NCBI RefSeq assembly: GCF_003018235.1
Contig: NZ_CP027437.1
Reading direction: 5' to 3' (one strand)
DNA: 64,000 nucleotides
Origin: Escherichia coli
GTDB taxonomy: Bacteria; Pseudomonadota; Gammaproteobacteria; Enterobacterales; Enterobacteriaceae
A program made the position numbers and the translations under genes. Below are positions 1,060-10,615 of this stretch, piece by piece. Positions within the stretch are counted from its first letter, which is position 1. The number at the start of each line of letters is the position of its first letter. Under the pieces are notes generated by a model. The model searched no databases. It saw only the letters and a list, made by a program, of their open reading frames with translations, and had not been told where the DNA came from.

Positions 1060-2721
1060 TTATTCTACGTTTTCGGCGACGGGAGTTGTTGAGGTTAAGG
1101 GTGAAGTCAATGCCGCCAGCGAGCCGCCAGAAACACCGATTTCATTGAGCAAGGAGTCAATCAGTGGTGCCTGTGTGCGGTAAGAGAGTGCGGCAGACAA
1201 TGCCTGTTCTGCCAGGTTTCCGCCACTAACGCTGCCTGATGCCGCATTCCCCGCAGCACCACCTCGGTTCAATCCATCGACCTGAATAATCTTGATGCCG
1301 TCGATAGACTTCATCGGCTCAACGGATTTCTCTATTACTGCAGGTAACGACTGTAATAGCGCCAGTTTGAATTTAAGGCTGGTTTGTTCATCAGAAAGTA
1401 CGTTGATAGCGTCGTTCAGCGCACGTTGCGCTTCTGCTTCCGCCAGACCCTTTTTACGCGTAGCTTCGGCTAACTCAACGATTGCCGCCGCCTGCATCTC
1501 TGCGGCTTCTTTCTCTGCTTTCGCCCGCACGGTCAGTTCAACCGCTTTGGTTTCTGCATCCTGCGCGGCAGCGATTAGGGCAACTTGTTTAGCACGATCG
1601 GCTTCTGCGGTCTGGCGAGTTGTTTCTACGTTTTGCTGGGCGCTTACCGCTTCTGCAAGTGCAAGGTTGGCACGCGCTTCCGCTTGTGACTGCTGTTCCG
1701 ATTTGGCGGCAATAGCGATCGATTTCGTCTGGTTGGCGATTTCGGTGACCTGCTGCTGTTCGATCTCTTTAATGCGAACTTCACGTTCAGCTTCAACTTT
1801 TCTGGAACGGACGGCCTGTTTGCGGTCGATTTCCGTTTCCTGAATCTGTCGTTCAGCCAGAATTCGCGTCTGCTCTGCTTCCCGACGACGCTCGGCCTCA
1901 AAAGCCGCAATTTTCGCATTCTGCTCAGCGGTACGGGTTTTAACCTGCTGCTCCTGCTCAAGCGTCATAAACGCTTCTTGTTGTTCAATCTCCAGCTTCC
2001 GCGAAAGTGCATCACGGTTTTTCTCACGCACCGCAACTTCTACATCCTGTTCAACTTCGTTACGTTCGCGACGACGGCGCTCCGTCTCCTGCGTCAGCTT
2101 GGTTAAACCTTCGGCGTCAAAGGCGTTGTTAGAATTGAAATGTTCTTTCGAGGTCTGGTTAAAGTTGGTAAGTGAAACGCTTTCCAGTTCCAGGCCGTTT
2201 TTCGACAAATCTTCAGCTACGGTATTTTGTACGCCCTGCACGAAGTTCTCGCGGGTATCTTGTAACTCATGCATGGTCATTTGCGCAGCTGTTGCACGGA
2301 GGGCATCGACAAATTTATCTTCAACCAACATACGTAAGTCTTCAGGCGACAGTGTGCGTTGCCCCAGCGTCTGGGCAGCGGTGGCAATACCTTCCACTGA
2401 CGGTTTTACCCGCACAAAGAAAGCGACAACGACATCGACGCGCATACGATCTTTCGTAATCAGGCTATCAATGGTTGAGCGGCTGACTTCCAGCTTCAGG
2501 GTATTCATATTGATGGGGATTATTTCATGAAAGATCGGCATCACGATTGCGCCACCGCTCATTACCACTTTTTGCCCACCTAAACCAGTACGAACAAAAG
2601 CTTGCTCTGCCGAAGCGCGACGATAGAGCCTGGCGAAAATAATTCCAATAATAAACAGAATGCATACGGCAATAATTGCGGTAAACATCCAGGAGGGCAC
2701 AGAATTAACAATATCATCCAT
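1060..2721 (-). CDS. yqiK: YqiK, flotillin-like SPFH/band-7 membrane protein
   Basis: 553-aa ORF, N-terminal TM helix, long coiled-coil E/A/R/Q-rich region; matches E. coli YqiK. Confidence 0.9.
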   Translation of the reverse strand: MDDIVNSVPSWMFTAIIAVCILFIIGIIFARLYRRASAEQAFVRTGLGGQKVVMSGGAIVMPIFHEIIPINMNTLKLEVSRSTIDSLITKDRMRVDVVVAFFVRVKPSVEGIATAAQTLGQRTLSPEDLRMLVEDKFVDALRATAAQMTMHELQDTRENFVQGVQNTVAEDLSKNGLELESVSLTNFNQTSKEHFNSNNAFDAEGLTKLTQETERRRRERNEVEQDVEVAVREKNRDALSRKLEIEQQEAFMTLEQEQQVKTRTAEQNAKIAAFEAERRREAEQTRILAERQIQETEIDRKQAVRSRKVEAEREVRIKEIEQQQVTEIANQTKSIAIAAKSEQQSQAEARANLALAEAVSAQQNVETTRQTAEADRAKQVALIAAAQDAETKAVELTVRAKAEKEAAEMQAAAIVELAEATRKKGLAEAEAQRALNDAINVLSDEQTSLKFKLALLQSLPAVIEKSVEPMKSIDGIKIIQVDGLNRGGAAGNAASGSVSGGNLAEQALSAALSYRTQAPLIDSLLNEIGVSGGSLAALTSPLTSTTPVAENVE

Positions 2722-2747: not shown

Positions 2748-3377
2748 TTACAATATTTGGGGCCAGGGATTGTTTTCCGCCAAATATCGCGTTGCAGAAA
2801 GTCGGTAAATAATTAACACTTTGTCTCCTTTAGTGAAAATTTTTCCTTCTTCAGGCTCCAGTAGTAAATAATGTATTTGGCCAAATTGATCGGTGAGTTT
2901 TCCTTCGCAGGGATTACCTGAAGTGGCTTGATGACCGGTAATTAATGCCATGCTACCAATATATTCTTCTTCTGTAATAGCTGAGCTCTGGTCGCGTGGA
3001 ATCCAGGGCGCAATTATTTTACCGGTATAATGCACCGCAATAATCGTAAACAATAAACTGACAGGAACCACGAACAGGTTCGACAGTGGTGATTGCCAGA
3101 CCATGAGGCAGGCATGCTGCAACAGGATGCCAATAAGACCAAAAAAACCAGCCAGTAAGCAGAGAACGACGAGAGCTGGCAATCTTCCGATATTGAGATA
3201 ATGAAGTGCCTGGCTAATATGACCTGTGGTTATGGAATCATAATGGTCAAGATGTGCATCAAGTGCACCGGAGAGCATGTGACCGCAGATAAGCGCAAAA
3301 ATTTCTAAAAGGCCGATCAACAGTACAAAGGAAATAGCGAAAAGATAAGGGGTGTTATAGTCGGCGAATAAAATCAT
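2748..3377 (-). CDS. yqiJ: YqiJ, NfeD-like inner membrane protein partnered with YqiK
   Basis: 209-aa multi-TM ORF immediately upstream of yqiK in the same orientation. Confidence 0.85.
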
Positions 3378-3645: not shown

Positions 3646-3846
3646 ATGGATCATAGTCTTAATTCTTTAAATAATTTCGATTTCCTGGCGCGTAGTTTTG
3701 CCAGAATGCACGCAGAAGGTCGCCCGGTCGATATTCTGGCCGTTACTGGTAACATGGATGAAGAACATAGAACCTGGTTTTGCGCACGTTATGCCTGGTA
3801 TTGCCAACAGATGATGCAAACCAGAGAACTTGAATTAGAACACTGA
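3646..3846 (+). CDS. glgS: GlgS, small stationary-phase protein
   Basis: 66-aa translation [18 protein letters not shown]... matches GlgS; GGAGGA RBS 8 nt upstream of ATG 3646. Confidence 0.9.
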
Positions 3847-3850
3847 TATT

Positions 3851-3873
3851 ACGGGCCGTCTGGCCCGTTTTTG
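3851..3873. terminator. Bidirectional rho-independent terminator between convergent glgS and ubiK
   Basis: Hairpin CGGGCC-GTCT-GGCCCG followed by TTTTT. Confidence 0.6.
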
Positions 3874-3880
3874 TGTTGCT

Positions 3881-4180
3881 TTATTCTGCTTTATCAATAG
3901 GCGGGATAGCCGGAGGAGATTGAAGATCTGCTACCGAATTATTGCGCGCTTCCAGTTCACTGATGCGCTGCTCCAGTAATGCCAGTTTCTCACGAGTCCG
4001 TAACAGGACTTGCGTCTGTACGTCGAATTCTTCGCGGCTCACCAGATCGAGACGCGTCAGCTGCCCTTGTAGGGTTTGGCGGATTTTTTTCTCCACATCT
4101 TCCCCGAACTCCCTGATTCCTTTAGGCATTGATTCGTGAACCTGGCGAGCGATTTGCTCAATTTTTTTCGGGTCAATCAT
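3881..4180 (-). CDS. ubiK: UbiK (YqiC), ubiquinone biosynthesis accessory factor
   Basis: Translation [32 protein letters not shown]... matches YqiC/UbiK; start taken at internal Met of the longer ORF. Confidence 0.85.
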
Positions 4181-4299: not shown

Positions 4300-4455
4300 C
4301 CGCTTATTCTCAGGGCGGGGCGAAATTCCCCACCGGCGGTAAATCAACTCAGTTGAAAGCCCGCGAGCGCTTTGGGTGCGAACTCAAAGGACAGCAGATC
4401 CGGTGTAATTCCGGGGCCGACGGTTAGAGTCCGGATGGGAGAGAGTAACGATTCT
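4300..4455 (+). ncRNA. FMN riboswitch (RFN element) in the ribB leader
   Basis: Conserved RFN motifs GGGGCGAAATTCCCCACCGGCGGTAAA ... AGCCCGCGAGCGC ... GGACAGCAGATCCGGTGTAATTCCGGGGCCGACGGTTAGAGTCCGGATGGGAGAGAGT directly upstream of ribB. Confidence 0.85.
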
Positions 4456-4553: not shown

Positions 4554-5207
4554 ATGAATCAGACGCTACTTTCCTCTTTTGGTACGCCTTTCGAACGTGT
4601 TGAAAATGCACTGGCTGCGCTGCGTGAAGGACGCGGTGTAATGGTGCTTGATGATGAAGACCGTGAAAACGAAGGCGATATGATCTTCCCGGCAGAAACC
4701 ATGACCGTTGAGCAGATGGCGCTGACCATTCGCCACGGTAGCGGTATTGTTTGCCTGTGCATTACTGAAGATCGCCGTAAACAACTCGATCTGCCAATGA
4801 TGGTAGAAAATAACACCAGCGCCTATGGCACCGGTTTTACCGTGACCATTGAAGCGGCTGAAGGTGTGACTACCGGTGTTTCTGCCGCTGACCGTATTAC
4901 GACCGTTCGCGCAGCGATTGCCGATGGCGCAAAACCTTCTGATCTGAATCGCCCGGGCCACGTTTTCCCACTTCGCGCTCAGGCTGGTGGTGTACTGACG
5001 CGTGGCGGCCATACTGAAGCGACTATTGATCTGATGACGCTGGCAGGCTTTAAACCGGCTGGTGTGCTGTGTGAGCTGACTAATGACGATGGTACGATGG
5101 CGCGTGCGCCAGAGTGCATTGAGTTTGCCAATAAACACAATATGGCGCTCGTGACTATTGAAGACCTGGTGGCTTATCGTCAGGCACATGAGCGTAAAGC
5201 CAGCTGA
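4554..5207 (+). CDS. ribB: RibB, 3,4-dihydroxy-2-butanone 4-phosphate synthase
   Basis: 217-aa ORF matching E. coli RibB; preceded by the FMN riboswitch. Confidence 0.95.
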
Positions 5208-5240
5208 AAATCGCTGCTTAATTTACTGTCTTAATCAAGA

Positions 5241-5275
5241 AACCGAAGTTGTAGCTGGCTTCGGTTTTTATTTTG
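5241..5275 (+). terminator. Rho-independent terminator after ribB
   Basis: Hairpin AACCGAAG...CTTCGGTT followed by TTTATTTTG. Confidence 0.6.
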
Positions 5276-5468
5276 CCCTGCTATGCAAGATGTTAATTCC
5301 GCTTCTCTTTCTATGAGAAAATTTCATTAATATCAGGCATTCTTTTTCATTATGATCAAAATCATATAATTGTTCCGTTATTATGCGACCATATGAATAT
5401 ATCCGAAAAAGGATATGTGAAATTTATGCGCTAAATGTTTAGTATTGTTAAATATTAAGGGTAAAAGG

Positions 5469-5639
5469 ATGTTTATCGCCTGGTACTGGATTGTATTGAT
5501 TGCTCTGGTTGTGGTGGGTTATTTCCTGCATTTGAAACGTTATTGTCGGGCGTTTCGCCAGGACAGAGACGCACTGCTTGAAGCGCGGAACAAATACTTA
5601 AACAGTACGAGAGAAGAGACAGCCGAAAAGGTAGAATAA
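5469..5639 (+). CDS. Small single-pass membrane protein (56 aa), uncharacterised
   Basis: ORF MFIAWYWIVLIALVVVGYFLHLKRY... with one TM helix and charged C-terminus; SD-like TAAGGG upstream; followed by hairpin 5657-5687 plus T-run. Confidence 0.45.
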   Translation: MFIAWYWIVLIALVVVGYFLHLKRYCRAFRQDRDALLEARNKYLNSTREETAEKVE

Positions 5640-5696
5640 GGCTTTCGTGAAGCTGGCAGAAGTTGTCCATGCGCTGGACAACTTCTGATGTTGTTT

Positions 5697-6470
5697 TTAA
5701 CCAATTCCCGCCGTTTGTAGCAGCACTAAACTGAATCCCATCACTGACATTCCACATAGTACGCCATAGCTGGGGTTATTATTAGGGTCAATCTCTTTGG
5801 CGAGCGGCATTAATTCATCAACCGAGAGCGCCACCATAATTCCTGCAACCGCCGCCATGATTGCCGCCATGACCACCGGGGAAATCATGCTACCGAGGAT
5901 TAACCACGCCAGCACACCACCAAGAATTTCTGCCAGTCCAGAAATCCCCGCCCAAAGAATCGCGGTGCGTTTAGACCCCGTTGCCGCGTAAACCGGGCCT
6001 GCAACCGCCAGACCTTCAGGAATATTGTGTAACGCAACGGCCAGTGCGATGCCAAAGCCCAGCTCCAGGTTGCTGCTCGCAGTGACAAAGGTGGCAATCC
6101 CTTCCGGGAAGTTATGCAGACTGATGCCGAGAGTGAGCAGAATGGCTGTGCGCTTGATCGATTTTGGCAACGGCTGCACCGATTTTTGCATTAAATCCTG
6201 CGGATGCGCATGTGGCAACATGCGGTCCAGGCCAAAATAGCCAAGCAGACCGAAGATAAACATTCCATAACCCAACACAGGCGACATTCCTTCGGCTGCT
6301 AGTGCGGCAGGAAGCATTTCCATTAATGAGATGAGCAACATGATCCCCGCCGCAAATCCTAGCGAAAACGCCAGTAAGCGGTTCGAGGGTTTTTGCCCGA
6401 GAACGCCGAGAAACGCGCCAATAAACGTGGCTGCCCCCGCCAGTATGGTCAGAATGAGAGGTACTGACAT
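5697..6470 (-). CDS. zupT: ZupT, ZIP-family zinc/divalent metal transporter
   Basis: 257-aa translation from [16 protein letters not shown]... matches ZupT; start at internal Met of the longer ORF. Confidence 0.9.
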
Positions 6471-7446: not shown

Positions 7447-8118
7447 TTAGCCTCTGATGATTTTAAGCGCCCATGCGCCACTCATAATGACCAGCAGCAC
7501 CAGACACATACCAAAAGCCAGCATACAAGCCTGAGCCATATTCATAAAATGCCATGGTGGTAGCAGATACCAGCCTTCAGATTGCTGATACATTTCCACA
7601 AACCACTGTTGCGTGCTGCTCAGTGTGACGCCATCAGGAACGATTGGTGCGTCATAGCCACAATCCCCGGTAGGCTTGAACCAATTTGGTGCCCACTGTG
7701 CCAGCGGCAGGTTAAAGGGAAAAGTTGGATCGGTAGAGCACCCCTGTACGCCAAACAGTGAATCGGGATCCGGATTATGTACTGCATGGTGGATATCGTT
7801 CAGTTTGAGCGAAAACTTCAGTCCCAAAATGCTGCCGTAAAATGCCATCACGCAGCCAATTAGCTTTAGGATGATGTTCTTTGGGTTGATCGCTGCAACC
7901 AATCCTCCAATAACCATCACAAACATGGCGTAGCGAATGTATACACATTGCTCACAGGGTGCCATGTAGAGATAGATCTGGAAAAAAGAGTGCGCCAGGA
8001 TAATTAACGCGCCCATCGCAATGGCCATTAACAACCACAAAAAACGTTGTTCTTGCCATCTTACCAGCGTGTCCACCGGTGAAGTGCGAAGGTCTTTCCA
8101 CATTCCCTTAATACCCAT
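7447..8118 (-). CDS. dsbI: DsbI, DsbB-like membrane thiol oxidase
   Basis: 223-aa multi-TM ORF with CxxC-type cysteines, last gene of the assT-dsbL-dsbI operon. Confidence 0.85.
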
Positions 8119-8132
8119 AGCCTGTTTCCCTG

Positions 8133-8801
8133 TTATTTGCTTGCTAACTCGCGGATAAGGTCTGCCATTGAGTCAATAGATTTAATACTCTTGGTGTAGA
8201 TCAGGTATTTACCATTGACGACATACGCCGGAACGCCCTGGATTTTTGCAACTTCATAAGAGGCTTTCCATTTTTCCAGCGTTTCCTGAACTGCAGGCTC
8301 TTTCAGCGCGGCTTCAAAATCGGCCTGACTCATACCTGCGGCGTCCAGTCCGGTTGTGATAAAGGCAGCCGGATCTTTACCATCAGACCAGCGTTCTTTT
8401 TTGTCATGATAAGCCGCGTAATAAGCAAACTTGGCTTTCTTAAACTGAGAGTTAGCATCAAATAATGAAATACCTGCTGCTTTATCTTTATTGATCAAGA
8501 CCGCAAAGACTTCGCTTGCTTGTTTGCCGTATTCACCTTTTGTTTCCAGATGGAATGGAGTAAAAGCAACGATATCTTTCACTTTTTCCGATACCGGACC
8601 GGTAACCGCTTTGTCGTACTTGTAACAGAACGGGCAGGCGTAGCTAAATACCTTAATCAGCGTTTTGTCGGCATTCGGAATAGGTTTTTCCAGAACCATG
8701 TAATCCGTGCCTTCGGTAAATGCAGAAGCGGTAAATGAAACAGCCAAAGCTGCGGTAAGCAGTATGGTTTTAAATAGTGATGAGATCCCTAATTTCGACA
8801 T
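8133..8801 (-). CDS. dsbL: DsbL, periplasmic DsbA-like thiol:disulfide oxidoreductase
   Basis: 222-aa ORF with signal peptide and CPFC active-site motif. Confidence 0.85.
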
Positions 8802-8818
8802 TTTTATTCCCTTCTTAA

Positions 8819-10615
8819 TTATTTGAACATCTGTTGTGGACGGACTAACAGTGCACGATAGTGAGTCTGATTGGGTTTATCTGACAGCACGTCGATTTCC
8901 ACTTTCACTTCTTTGGTTTTGTAATCGATTTCGTTCAACTTACCGACGGTTGGCTGCCCGACATCGAACAAATGAATAGAACCACCGAAGCCAAACATGG
9001 TGTTACGGTCGGCTTGATATTCAATGATGGAGGTAATCGGGCTATAGAAATCGTAGCCACGTTCTTTACCGTATTCCCACACTTGCTGAACGGTGCCTTT
9101 CTTCTCATCAATCTTATATTCCACAAAGCGGGAGTATTTCATGGTTGGTAAGGCAGGTTGTTCCAGATGACGCCCATCGCCATTATCAAAAATGGTGAGC
9201 GTTCCTTTGCTGGAAATCCAGGCGGTATGCTGGGTGTAGGTAAAGTCGAAGTCTGAGTTTTCGCACAGGCCATTTTCGTTACAGGTAATTGGCTTACCGT
9301 TAGCATCAACCGGTTTCAGCAGCTTGCTGGCCAGCGGTTTTTCCCAACCTTTAGAGGGCGCAAGGATCCATTTCACTTGCTTATCACGACCAATTTTCAC
9401 AACACCCTGGTGGCGAGAGGAGAGGATGATTGAGTCGTCTTTTGCGTCATAGGCGATTGAGTTAACGTGCGCCCAGTTACGACCTGGCCCTACACCCAGC
9501 GCGTCGCCGAACGGTGTATCTGGTTCCAGTTTTGCCTGTTGTCCTGCATGGGCAAGGTCAACGTTAACGCAAACTGCACCTGCATCCAGCGCGCCGAGCA
9601 GTGCATCGCGTTTCGGATCGAGGATCTTGGTCAGATCCCATACATCGACAACGCGACCAGATTTATCGACTTCGAGGATATGGTCACGAATGGTGGTGAC
9701 GTGTACGCCGTCATCGCGACGATAGTTACTCTTACCTACGCGCAACAGTACCGTGCCATTTGGCATCTCAATGGACTCATGAGTAGCGTCAGCAAATCCG
9801 CGCGGTAGTTTGTGATCTTCGAGCACCTGCCCCATCATGTCGAACTCGTACCAGTGCTGACCTTGTACAGCGGTAAAGGTGCCGCGTGGCGTTTCGCGGA
9901 TACCCATCAGATAACCACGCTTGTTGATATCGCGGTCACGACCATCGTAGAAAGTGTCTTGATCCAGCCACCAGCGGTATTCACCTTCGGTATCGACGAT
10001 GAAAGTAAAGGGCGCGATATCAAAAGGTAGTGCGCCGGTTGCCGGACCCGCATCAAGGATACCGGCATTTTTATCTTTCTCACCATGCCAGTGGAGATCG
10101 GAACCTTGGGCGGTAAAGGTGTGGGTATTAACCAGATAGAGGCGATCTTCAAAACCCGGTGCGACTTTAATAACTTTGGTCTGTTGTAAATCGGAGATAG
10201 AGCGGTTATCCATGTAATTATTGACGATGGCCGAAGTGTGCACCACATAATCATCTTTCATGACCTTGCCGTTTTCTTTCCACTCAACGGTCACTTTGTT
10301 AGCAAATTTCTGATAAAGACCAAAAATCGGTACACCATCGTAAGTTTTTAGTGATTCCTGACCCACGGGATAGCTGATTTCTACGCCTTTTTCGCCCTTC
10401 CCATGGACGGTAACTTTGACGTCAGAAATAACATGGCTATCTAAGTCAACCAAAGCGGTCAGTGGTGCATTGCCGTAGGGATCGACAATGACCGCACCCA
10501 GTTGCCCGGCAGGCGGTGCGGGTTTAAAACCTGCTGCCATCACCCCCGGTGCTGACAAACCCAGAGTTATCGCCACAGCTCCGGCTACCAGAGTTTTTCT
10601 ATATTTATCAAACAT
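8819..10615 (-). CDS. assT: AssT, periplasmic arylsulfate sulfotransferase
   Basis: 598-aa ORF with signal peptide; matches the ASST family; first gene of the three-gene operon. Confidence 0.9.
   Translation of the reverse strand: MFDKYRKTLVAGAVAITLGLSAPGVMAAGFKPAPPAGQLGAVIVDPYGNAPLTALVDLDSHVISDVKVTVHGKGEKGVEISYPVGQESLKTYDGVPIFGLYQKFANKVTVEWKENGKVMKDDYVVHTSAIVNNYMDNRSISDLQQTKVIKVAPGFEDRLYLVNTHTFTAQGSDLHWHGEKDKNAGILDAGPATGALPFDIAPFTFIVDTEGEYRWWLDQDTFYDGRDRDINKRGYLMGIRETPRGTFTAVQGQHWYEFDMMGQVLEDHKLPRGFADATHESIEMPNGTVLLRVGKSNYRRDDGVHVTTIRDHILEVDKSGRVVDVWDLTKILDPKRDALLGALDAGAVCVNVDLAHAGQQAKLEPDTPFGDALGVGPGRNWAHVNSIAYDAKDDSIILSSRHQGVVKIGRDKQVKWILAPSKGWEKPLASKLLKPVDANGKPITCNENGLCENSDFDFTYTQHTAWISSKGTLTIFDNGDGRHLEQPALPTMKYSRFVEYKIDEKKGTVQQVWEYGKERGYDFYSPITSIIEYQADRNTMFGFGGSIHLFDVGQPTVGKLNEIDYKTKEVKVEIDVLSDKPNQTHYRALLVRPQQMFK

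Follow-up and report, generated by a model that had tools for sequence, protein, structure and literature searches.

Is the short spacer between glgS and ubiK in this Escherichia coli genome a site from which a fimbrial operon was lost, or one that no such operon ever entered? A sequence-only reading of the 64,000-nucleotide stretch analysed here (the window) had stated that K-12 carries a chaperone-usher cluster and an IS2 between these two genes, and had described the corresponding site in the window as clean and empty. The K-12 gene order given there is correct: the annotation of NC_000913.3 gives ubiK, ygiL, yqiG split by IS2I (insC5/insD5), yqiH, yqiI and glgS.

The glgS/ubiK junction in the window

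The window opens with the end of hldE, and the genes from there to yqiD, after which comes zupT, provide the frame for the comparisons below:

3-641: 3′ end of hldE
1060-2721, minus strand: yqiK
2748-3377, minus strand: yqiJ coding sequence, a flanking core gene, 98% amino acid identity with K-12 YqiJ
3646-3846, plus strand: glgS coding sequence, 66 aa (Pfam PF08971 GlgS, 153.9 bits, full length; the RefSeq annotation of near-identical genomes concurs)
3847-3880: convergent intergenic spacer of 34 bp, the "empty site", by direct reading
3851-3878, plus strand: intrinsic-terminator-like element for glgS, made up of a hairpin (3851-3868) and a U-tract, TTTTGTGTTG (3869-3878)
3878-3949, minus strand: segment replaced in K-12-type genomes by a 6.6-kb yqi-like cassette; 72 bp comprising ubiK codons ~78-99, the stop codon and 3 nt of spacer
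3881-4180, minus strand: ubiK (yqiC) coding sequence, 99 aa, ancestral-type allele (Pfam PF04380 BMFP)
4302-4450, plus strand: FMN riboswitch upstream of ribB (Rfam RF00050, 120.9 bits)
4554-5207, plus strand: ribB coding sequence, 100% amino acid identity with K-12 RibB
5208-5350: second empty site, the ribB-yqiD intergenic stretch, replaced by the Yqi/EA-I operon in ST95-type genomes
5469-5639, plus strand: yqiD, a small membrane protein of 56 aa (open reading frame; annotated as yqiD in matching genomes and in K-12)

Two further differences from K-12 lie outside the junction itself. The hldE-yqiK intergenic region of the window has a single SIB RNA (686-836; Rfam RF00113, 142 bits), against two tandem modules, sibD/ibsD and sibE/ibsE, in K-12. 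On the other side, a dsbI-dsbL-assT (arylsulfate sulfotransferase) cluster at 7447-10615 on the minus strand adjoins ygiD; it is present in ST95-32 and missing from K-12, where ygiD abuts ygiC.

By direct reading, glgS ends in a TGA stop codon at 3844-3846 and ubiK, on the reverse strand, in a stop codon at 3881-3883, and the claim that the two genes converge across 34 bp (3847-3880) holds. The subunit, usher, chaperone and adhesin genes of the K-12-type Yqi-like operon are absent between ubiK and glgS, homologues of K-12 YgiL, YqiG, YqiH and YqiI were found by tblastn nowhere in the 64-kb window, and the glgS/ubiK site contains no fimbrial or IS2 remnant and neither the K-12-type ubiK tail nor its leader. 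Direct reading, blastn and tblastn are thus in agreement with the claimed absence of yqi operon and IS2 remnants. The site also bears no scar: ubiK is full length with an outgroup-type tail, glgS is intact, and K-12 cassette sequence is absent. Where K-12-type genomes have their own 3′ ubiK end followed by a 283-bp AT-rich leader, the window has the ancestral tail instead.

The spacer contains ACGGGCC-GTCT-GGCCCGT (3851-3868) and then TTTTGTGTTG, and on the plus strand these have the form of an intrinsic terminator: a 7-bp stem with six GC pairs, a 4-nt loop and the U-tract as tail. The hairpin has a minimum free energy of -17.2 kcal/mol on the plus strand and -17.3 kcal/mol on the minus strand (z = -3.5 and -4.6, respectively), and for neither strand does any of 200 shuffled sequences fold equally well. 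A consensus terminator scan makes a call on the plus strand only, in the glgS sense, and none on the minus strand. Reportedly, full-length RNA profiling in E. coli has described bidirectional terminators between convergent genes, and the element had been taken for one of these. It resembles them in being one GC-rich hairpin between two convergent stop codons, stable on both strands and conserved across genera. It differs from them, in Escherichia, in that the U-tract lies 3′ of the hairpin on the glgS strand only; the tail in the ubiK sense is UAAUAUCA. Since the scan calls the plus strand only and the ubiK-sense tail has this composition, the "bidirectional" part of the description is unproven in Escherichia, and only the stability of the hairpin on both strands stands. 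Some Citrobacter alleles have a T-run on the ubiK-sense side instead.

The GGGCC-N4-GGCCC core is kept from Escherichia to Citrobacter, Raoultella and Trabulsiella, and this conserved GC-rich hairpin is the sole functional content of the spacer. To judge from its sequence, the hairpin with its downstream U-tract would most likely end glgS transcription, and it may additionally slow or stop read-through from ubiK. The hairpin remains beside glgS in K-12, as homology comes as close as 3 nt to the stop codon of ubiK in the window.

The K-12 counterpart and the two UbiK alleles

In a blastn comparison with the K-12 region (L001), window 6000-3950 corresponds to L001 3021-5071 and window 3877-686 to L001 11709-14901, which places the breakpoints at window 3950 (L001 5071) and window 3877 (L001 11709). 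For the intervening 72 bp of the window, K-12 has 6637 bp, or 5301 bp when IS2 and its 5-bp target duplication are subtracted. Relative to the window, K-12 shows a replacement rather than a simple insertion: an operon is present between ubiK and glgS in K-12, as had been claimed, but 72 bp of window sequence are exchanged for it. The same breakpoints (window 3877 and 3950) are found in all K-12-type genomes among the matches listed. The K-12 Yqi-like operon locus (ygiL-yqiG-yqiH-yqiI, b3043-b3048) and the window have ribB, ubiK, glgS, yqiJ, yqiK and hldE as common flanks; the window differs in having neither operon nor IS2, and in retaining the 72 bp with the ancestral ubiK 3′ end that is missing in K-12.

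Since the left breakpoint falls inside ubiK and 72 bp are exchanged, there are two UbiK proteins with different C-termini, of 99 aa in the window and 96 aa in K-12. The BMFP domain (PF04380) is matched by aa 1-78 of the window protein (97.5 bits; cut-off, 37.2) and by aa 1-77 of the K-12 protein, the swapped tail starting at the domain end. Three UbiK residues, R72, I73 and E77, have been modelled as UbiJ contacts in work that uses the K-12 sequence (PMC9499169); all three precede the breakpoint and are the same in both alleles.

The nucleotide identity of window and K-12 ubiK is 98.5% at nt 1-130, 83.2% at nt 131-231 and 48% at nt 232-291. The divergence of the middle segment is about that of the Citrobacter ubiK core from the window (84.4% identity). 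The 3′ half of the K-12 gene (L001 4971-5131 against window 3881-4050) looks chimeric and is unalignable past nt 231. The tail of the window protein matches those of E. whittamii (..SPPAIPPVDKAE) and Citrobacter (..PAPAIPPVDPQE), whereas the K-12 tail matches none of these compared outgroup tails, and the K-12 ubiK tail and leader gave only chance-level blastn matches to other loci. On these comparisons, the K-12 UbiK C-terminus is a derived allele that is linked to the fimbrial cassette and was probably imported.

The alignment bears directly on whether a K-12-type operon was once present in this lineage and then removed by a precise secondary deletion. Loss of IS elements and of fimbrial operons is frequent, and insertions of IS2, IS1, IS3 and ISVsa5 are seen inside the K-12-type operon of various strains. 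A simple deletion is nevertheless excluded as the route, because it could restore neither the ancestral 72 bp (3878-3949) nor the UbiK tail common to E. whittamii and Citrobacter; as no K-12-type tail, leader or yqi fragment is left in the window, we consider a history of this kind very unlikely.

Outgroups, the ribB/yqiD site and population frequencies

The outgroup set was obtained by a UbiK scan with one genome per species, which returned 80 loci; Salmonella, E. fergusonii and the E. coli species representative are not among them. Fimbrial genes lie between ubiK and glgS in none of the 80. In all 19 outgroup loci with a measured spacer, glgS is immediately convergent with ubiK; 16 of these loci have a spacer of 28-34 bp that contains a GGGCC-N4-GGCCC hairpin, and the other three have one of 53-72 bp, in one case with no such hairpin:

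E. whittamii: 34 bp, near-identical to the window's spacer, GGGCC-N4-GGCCC
"E. coli" SCPM-O-B-8794 (a GTDB species other than E. coli, presumably cryptic clade): 34 bp, GGGCC-N4-GGCCC
E. albertii: 28 bp, GGGCC-N4-GGCCC
Citrobacter, nine species: 32-34 bp, GGGCC-N4-GGCCC
Raoultella: 30-31 bp, GGGCC-N4-GGCCC
Trabulsiella: 32 bp, GGGCC-N4-GGCCC
Klebsiella spallanzanii and K. oxytoca: 58 and 53 bp, GGGCC-N4/5-GGCCC
Pseudocitrobacter faecalis: 72 bp, a different hairpin region with no GGGCC core

The 34-bp spacer of the cryptic-clade locus L003 is likewise near-identical to that of the window. The ubiK/glgS adjacency and the spacer are thus present in outgroup species, and because outgroup adjacency, spacers and UbiK tails match the window and not K-12, the window arrangement is ancestral and the K-12 state derived. 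The description of a clean empty site is therefore right as to the lack of remnants, and the outgroups take it further, to a site that was most likely never occupied rather than vacated. They polarise the glgS/ubiK site, but not the history of this particular strain. One outgroup genome, that of Affinibrenneria salicis (NZ_VYKJ01000001.1), has two ribB-ubiK loci (90998-111306 and 963823-984131) with identical match statistics, which would fit either a large duplication or an error of assembly.

APEC/UPEC strains with the Yqi adhesin had been proposed as comparators that carry the operon. They do not carry it at this site: in ST95-32 the glgS/ubiK junction is equally empty, and the operon is located at ribB/yqiD-zupT instead. 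The operon in question, of APEC/UPEC ST95, is known as Yqi or ExPEC adhesin I (EA/I). Antao et al. (2009; PMC2771359) give PCR prevalence only, with the flanks undescribed and glgS, yqiC and IS2 unmentioned, and Wurpel et al. (2013; PMC3559732) say of the operon sites only that there are "various locus positions." The ST95-32 genome (NZ_CP043950.1) has a four-gene operon annotated between ribB and a small ORF adjoining zupT, and its ubiK, of 300 bp, converges with glgS across the 34-bp spacer that the window also has. Similarity between ST95-type genomes and the window runs up to ~5205 and sets in again at ~5351; the operon (L082 3575-8549) is carried by about 990 of 5426 genomes. In the window, ribB (end 5207) leads to yqiD (start 5469) without any chaperone-usher gene. 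The 145-bp ribB-yqiD stretch of the window aligns over its full length with the operon-less L003 and has no counterpart in the occupied alleles.

The Yqi/EA-I and K-12 operons are related chaperone-usher operons in the same 3-kb neighbourhood, but the former is sited at ribB/yqiD-zupT and not at ubiK/glgS, and it too is absent from the window. The ST95 proteins have the following identities to those of K-12 and to those of the ribB-side operon of E. whittamii:

Major subunit: 59% to K-12, 86% to E. whittamii
Usher: 56% to K-12, 89% to E. whittamii
Chaperone: 49% to K-12, 89% to E. whittamii
Adhesin: 37% to K-12, 64% to E. whittamii

Local translocation of the ribB-side operon (E. whittamii/ST95) into the K-12 site was rejected as a source of the K-12 operon. 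Protein identities reach no more than 37-59%, at the nucleotide level only the usher matches (~65%), the leaders have no homology, and the 72-bp ubiK end is not retained beside glgS in K-12.

A yqi-family chaperone-usher operon converges on ribB at the same position in E. whittamii (L002 3950-8917), Citrobacter, Enterobacter, Lelliottia, Trabulsiella, Pseudocitrobacter and Klebsiella spallanzanii (further ribB-side loci: L011, L017, L018, L020, L022-L025, L027, L028, L053, L061, L071 and L076), and is missing in sister species. This patchiness points either to an old locus that was lost several times or to recurrent exchange. Window 5351-5750 and L082 9001-9405, covering the yqiD region and the 3′ end of zupT, have an identity of 76-89%, far under the normal within-species level, which suggests that the ST95-type operon arrived together with foreign flanks.

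Population counts were made over 5426 complete E. coli genomes. Of these, 2067 (38%) have a contiguous glgS/ubiK junction, and 3268-3362 have the K-12-type operon, the upper count being 62%; the K-12 ubiK tail and leader occur in 3322 genomes and adjoin ygiL in all eight full-length matches listed. At ribB/zupT, 4427 genomes have a contiguous junction and about 998 a split one, and 1080 (19.9%) are contiguous at both sites. Subtracting 1080 from 2067 leaves 987 genomes, close to 998, and the K-12-type and Yqi/EA-I operons are therefore essentially mutually exclusive, as is their published description, which also reports the presence/absence polymorphism (Wurpel et al. 2013, PMC3559732). The window falls in the "neither operon" class together with O157:H7 and O55:H7 strains and strain C4, which has 99.9% identity to the window over 3.1 kb. 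That the operon was collapsed or dropped in assembly is scarcely credible, given that 2067 complete genomes and three further Escherichia species have the identical contiguous junction.

Over window 1-25000, the best match among the 5426 genomes has 99.0% identity over 25 kb (strain MEI003), while pieces of 1.5-3 kb match other strains (MEI003, C4) at 99.9-100%. By these matches, this part of the window reads as a recombination mosaic whose source strain is not closely represented among the complete genomes.

Origin and meaning of the two states

Taking junction, outgroups and counts together, we consider it very probable that the 34-bp spacer with its glgS-terminator hairpin is the ancestral, never-occupied state, that the K-12-type cassette was gained once, later, by part of E. 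coli, and that the window has the "neither operon" haplotype. The K-12-type state would thus have a single origin, to which the identical breakpoints and the closeness of the tail and leader count (3322) to the operon count (3268-3362) both point. The cassette would comprise a foreign ubiK 3′ end, the 283-bp AT-rich leader and ygiL-yqiGHI, and would have taken the place of 72 bp of ancestral sequence, most likely by homologous recombination with a diverged donor through crossovers in mid-ubiK and at the glgS terminator. The K-12 UbiK tail would then be the tail of the donor's UbiK, and IS2 would have entered yqiG afterwards, in the K-12 lineage. It is the gradient of ubiK identity, falling toward the breakpoint, that suggests import by this route. 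A donor with the ubiK-operon-glgS arrangement was found at none of the 80 outgroup loci.

The window could also have reached its present state by reversion, from an ancestor with the K-12-type operon in which allelic replacement from an operon-less E. coli restored the ancestral tail and spacer. The region is a suitable setting for such an exchange in being mosaic (a best match of 99.0% at 25 kb against 99.9-100% for 3-kb pieces in other strains), and the identities of its flanks with K-12 and ST95 differ from segment to segment, so recombination is frequent here. However, there is no positive sign of earlier occupancy, and the strains closest to the window at the locus (MEI003 and C4) are likewise empty; we therefore regard reversion as improbable, and a site that was never occupied as the better account.

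A broader reading, to which we give about even chances, extends this account to the whole interval. The stretch glgS-ubiK-ribB-yqiD would be one cassette locus with three alleles (Yqi-like, Yqi/EA-I and neither) that are exchanged by homologous recombination in the flanking core genes. K-12 UbiK would be chimeric, its C-terminal half (nt 131 onward, including the last ~20 residues) having entered together with the fimbrial cassette from a donor no closer than another genus, and the UbiK of the window would be the native Escherichia form.

It is already published that E. coli phylogroups vary in whether they have Yqi and Yqi-like operons, and the empty glgS/ubiK junction is common (38% of complete genomes), ancestral and ordinary; the overall significance of its presence in the window is small. 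Full-text literature searches found no published description of the exact operon site or of the difference in UbiK tails. The by-products of the comparison are the organisation of the locus in two sites and three haplotypes, the derived and probably imported K-12 UbiK tail and the conservation of the glgS hairpin across several enterobacterial genera. Since the EA/I and K-12 yqi operons occupy different, neighbouring sites, typing based on synteny or PCR should separate the two loci. The K-12 UbiK C-terminus, on which biochemical and modelling work has been based, is derived, and ~38% of E. coli as well as related genera differ from it. If the three-allele reading is true, there could be subtle differences between the UbiK tails in the length of the coiled coil or in how UbiJ-UbiK2 behaves.
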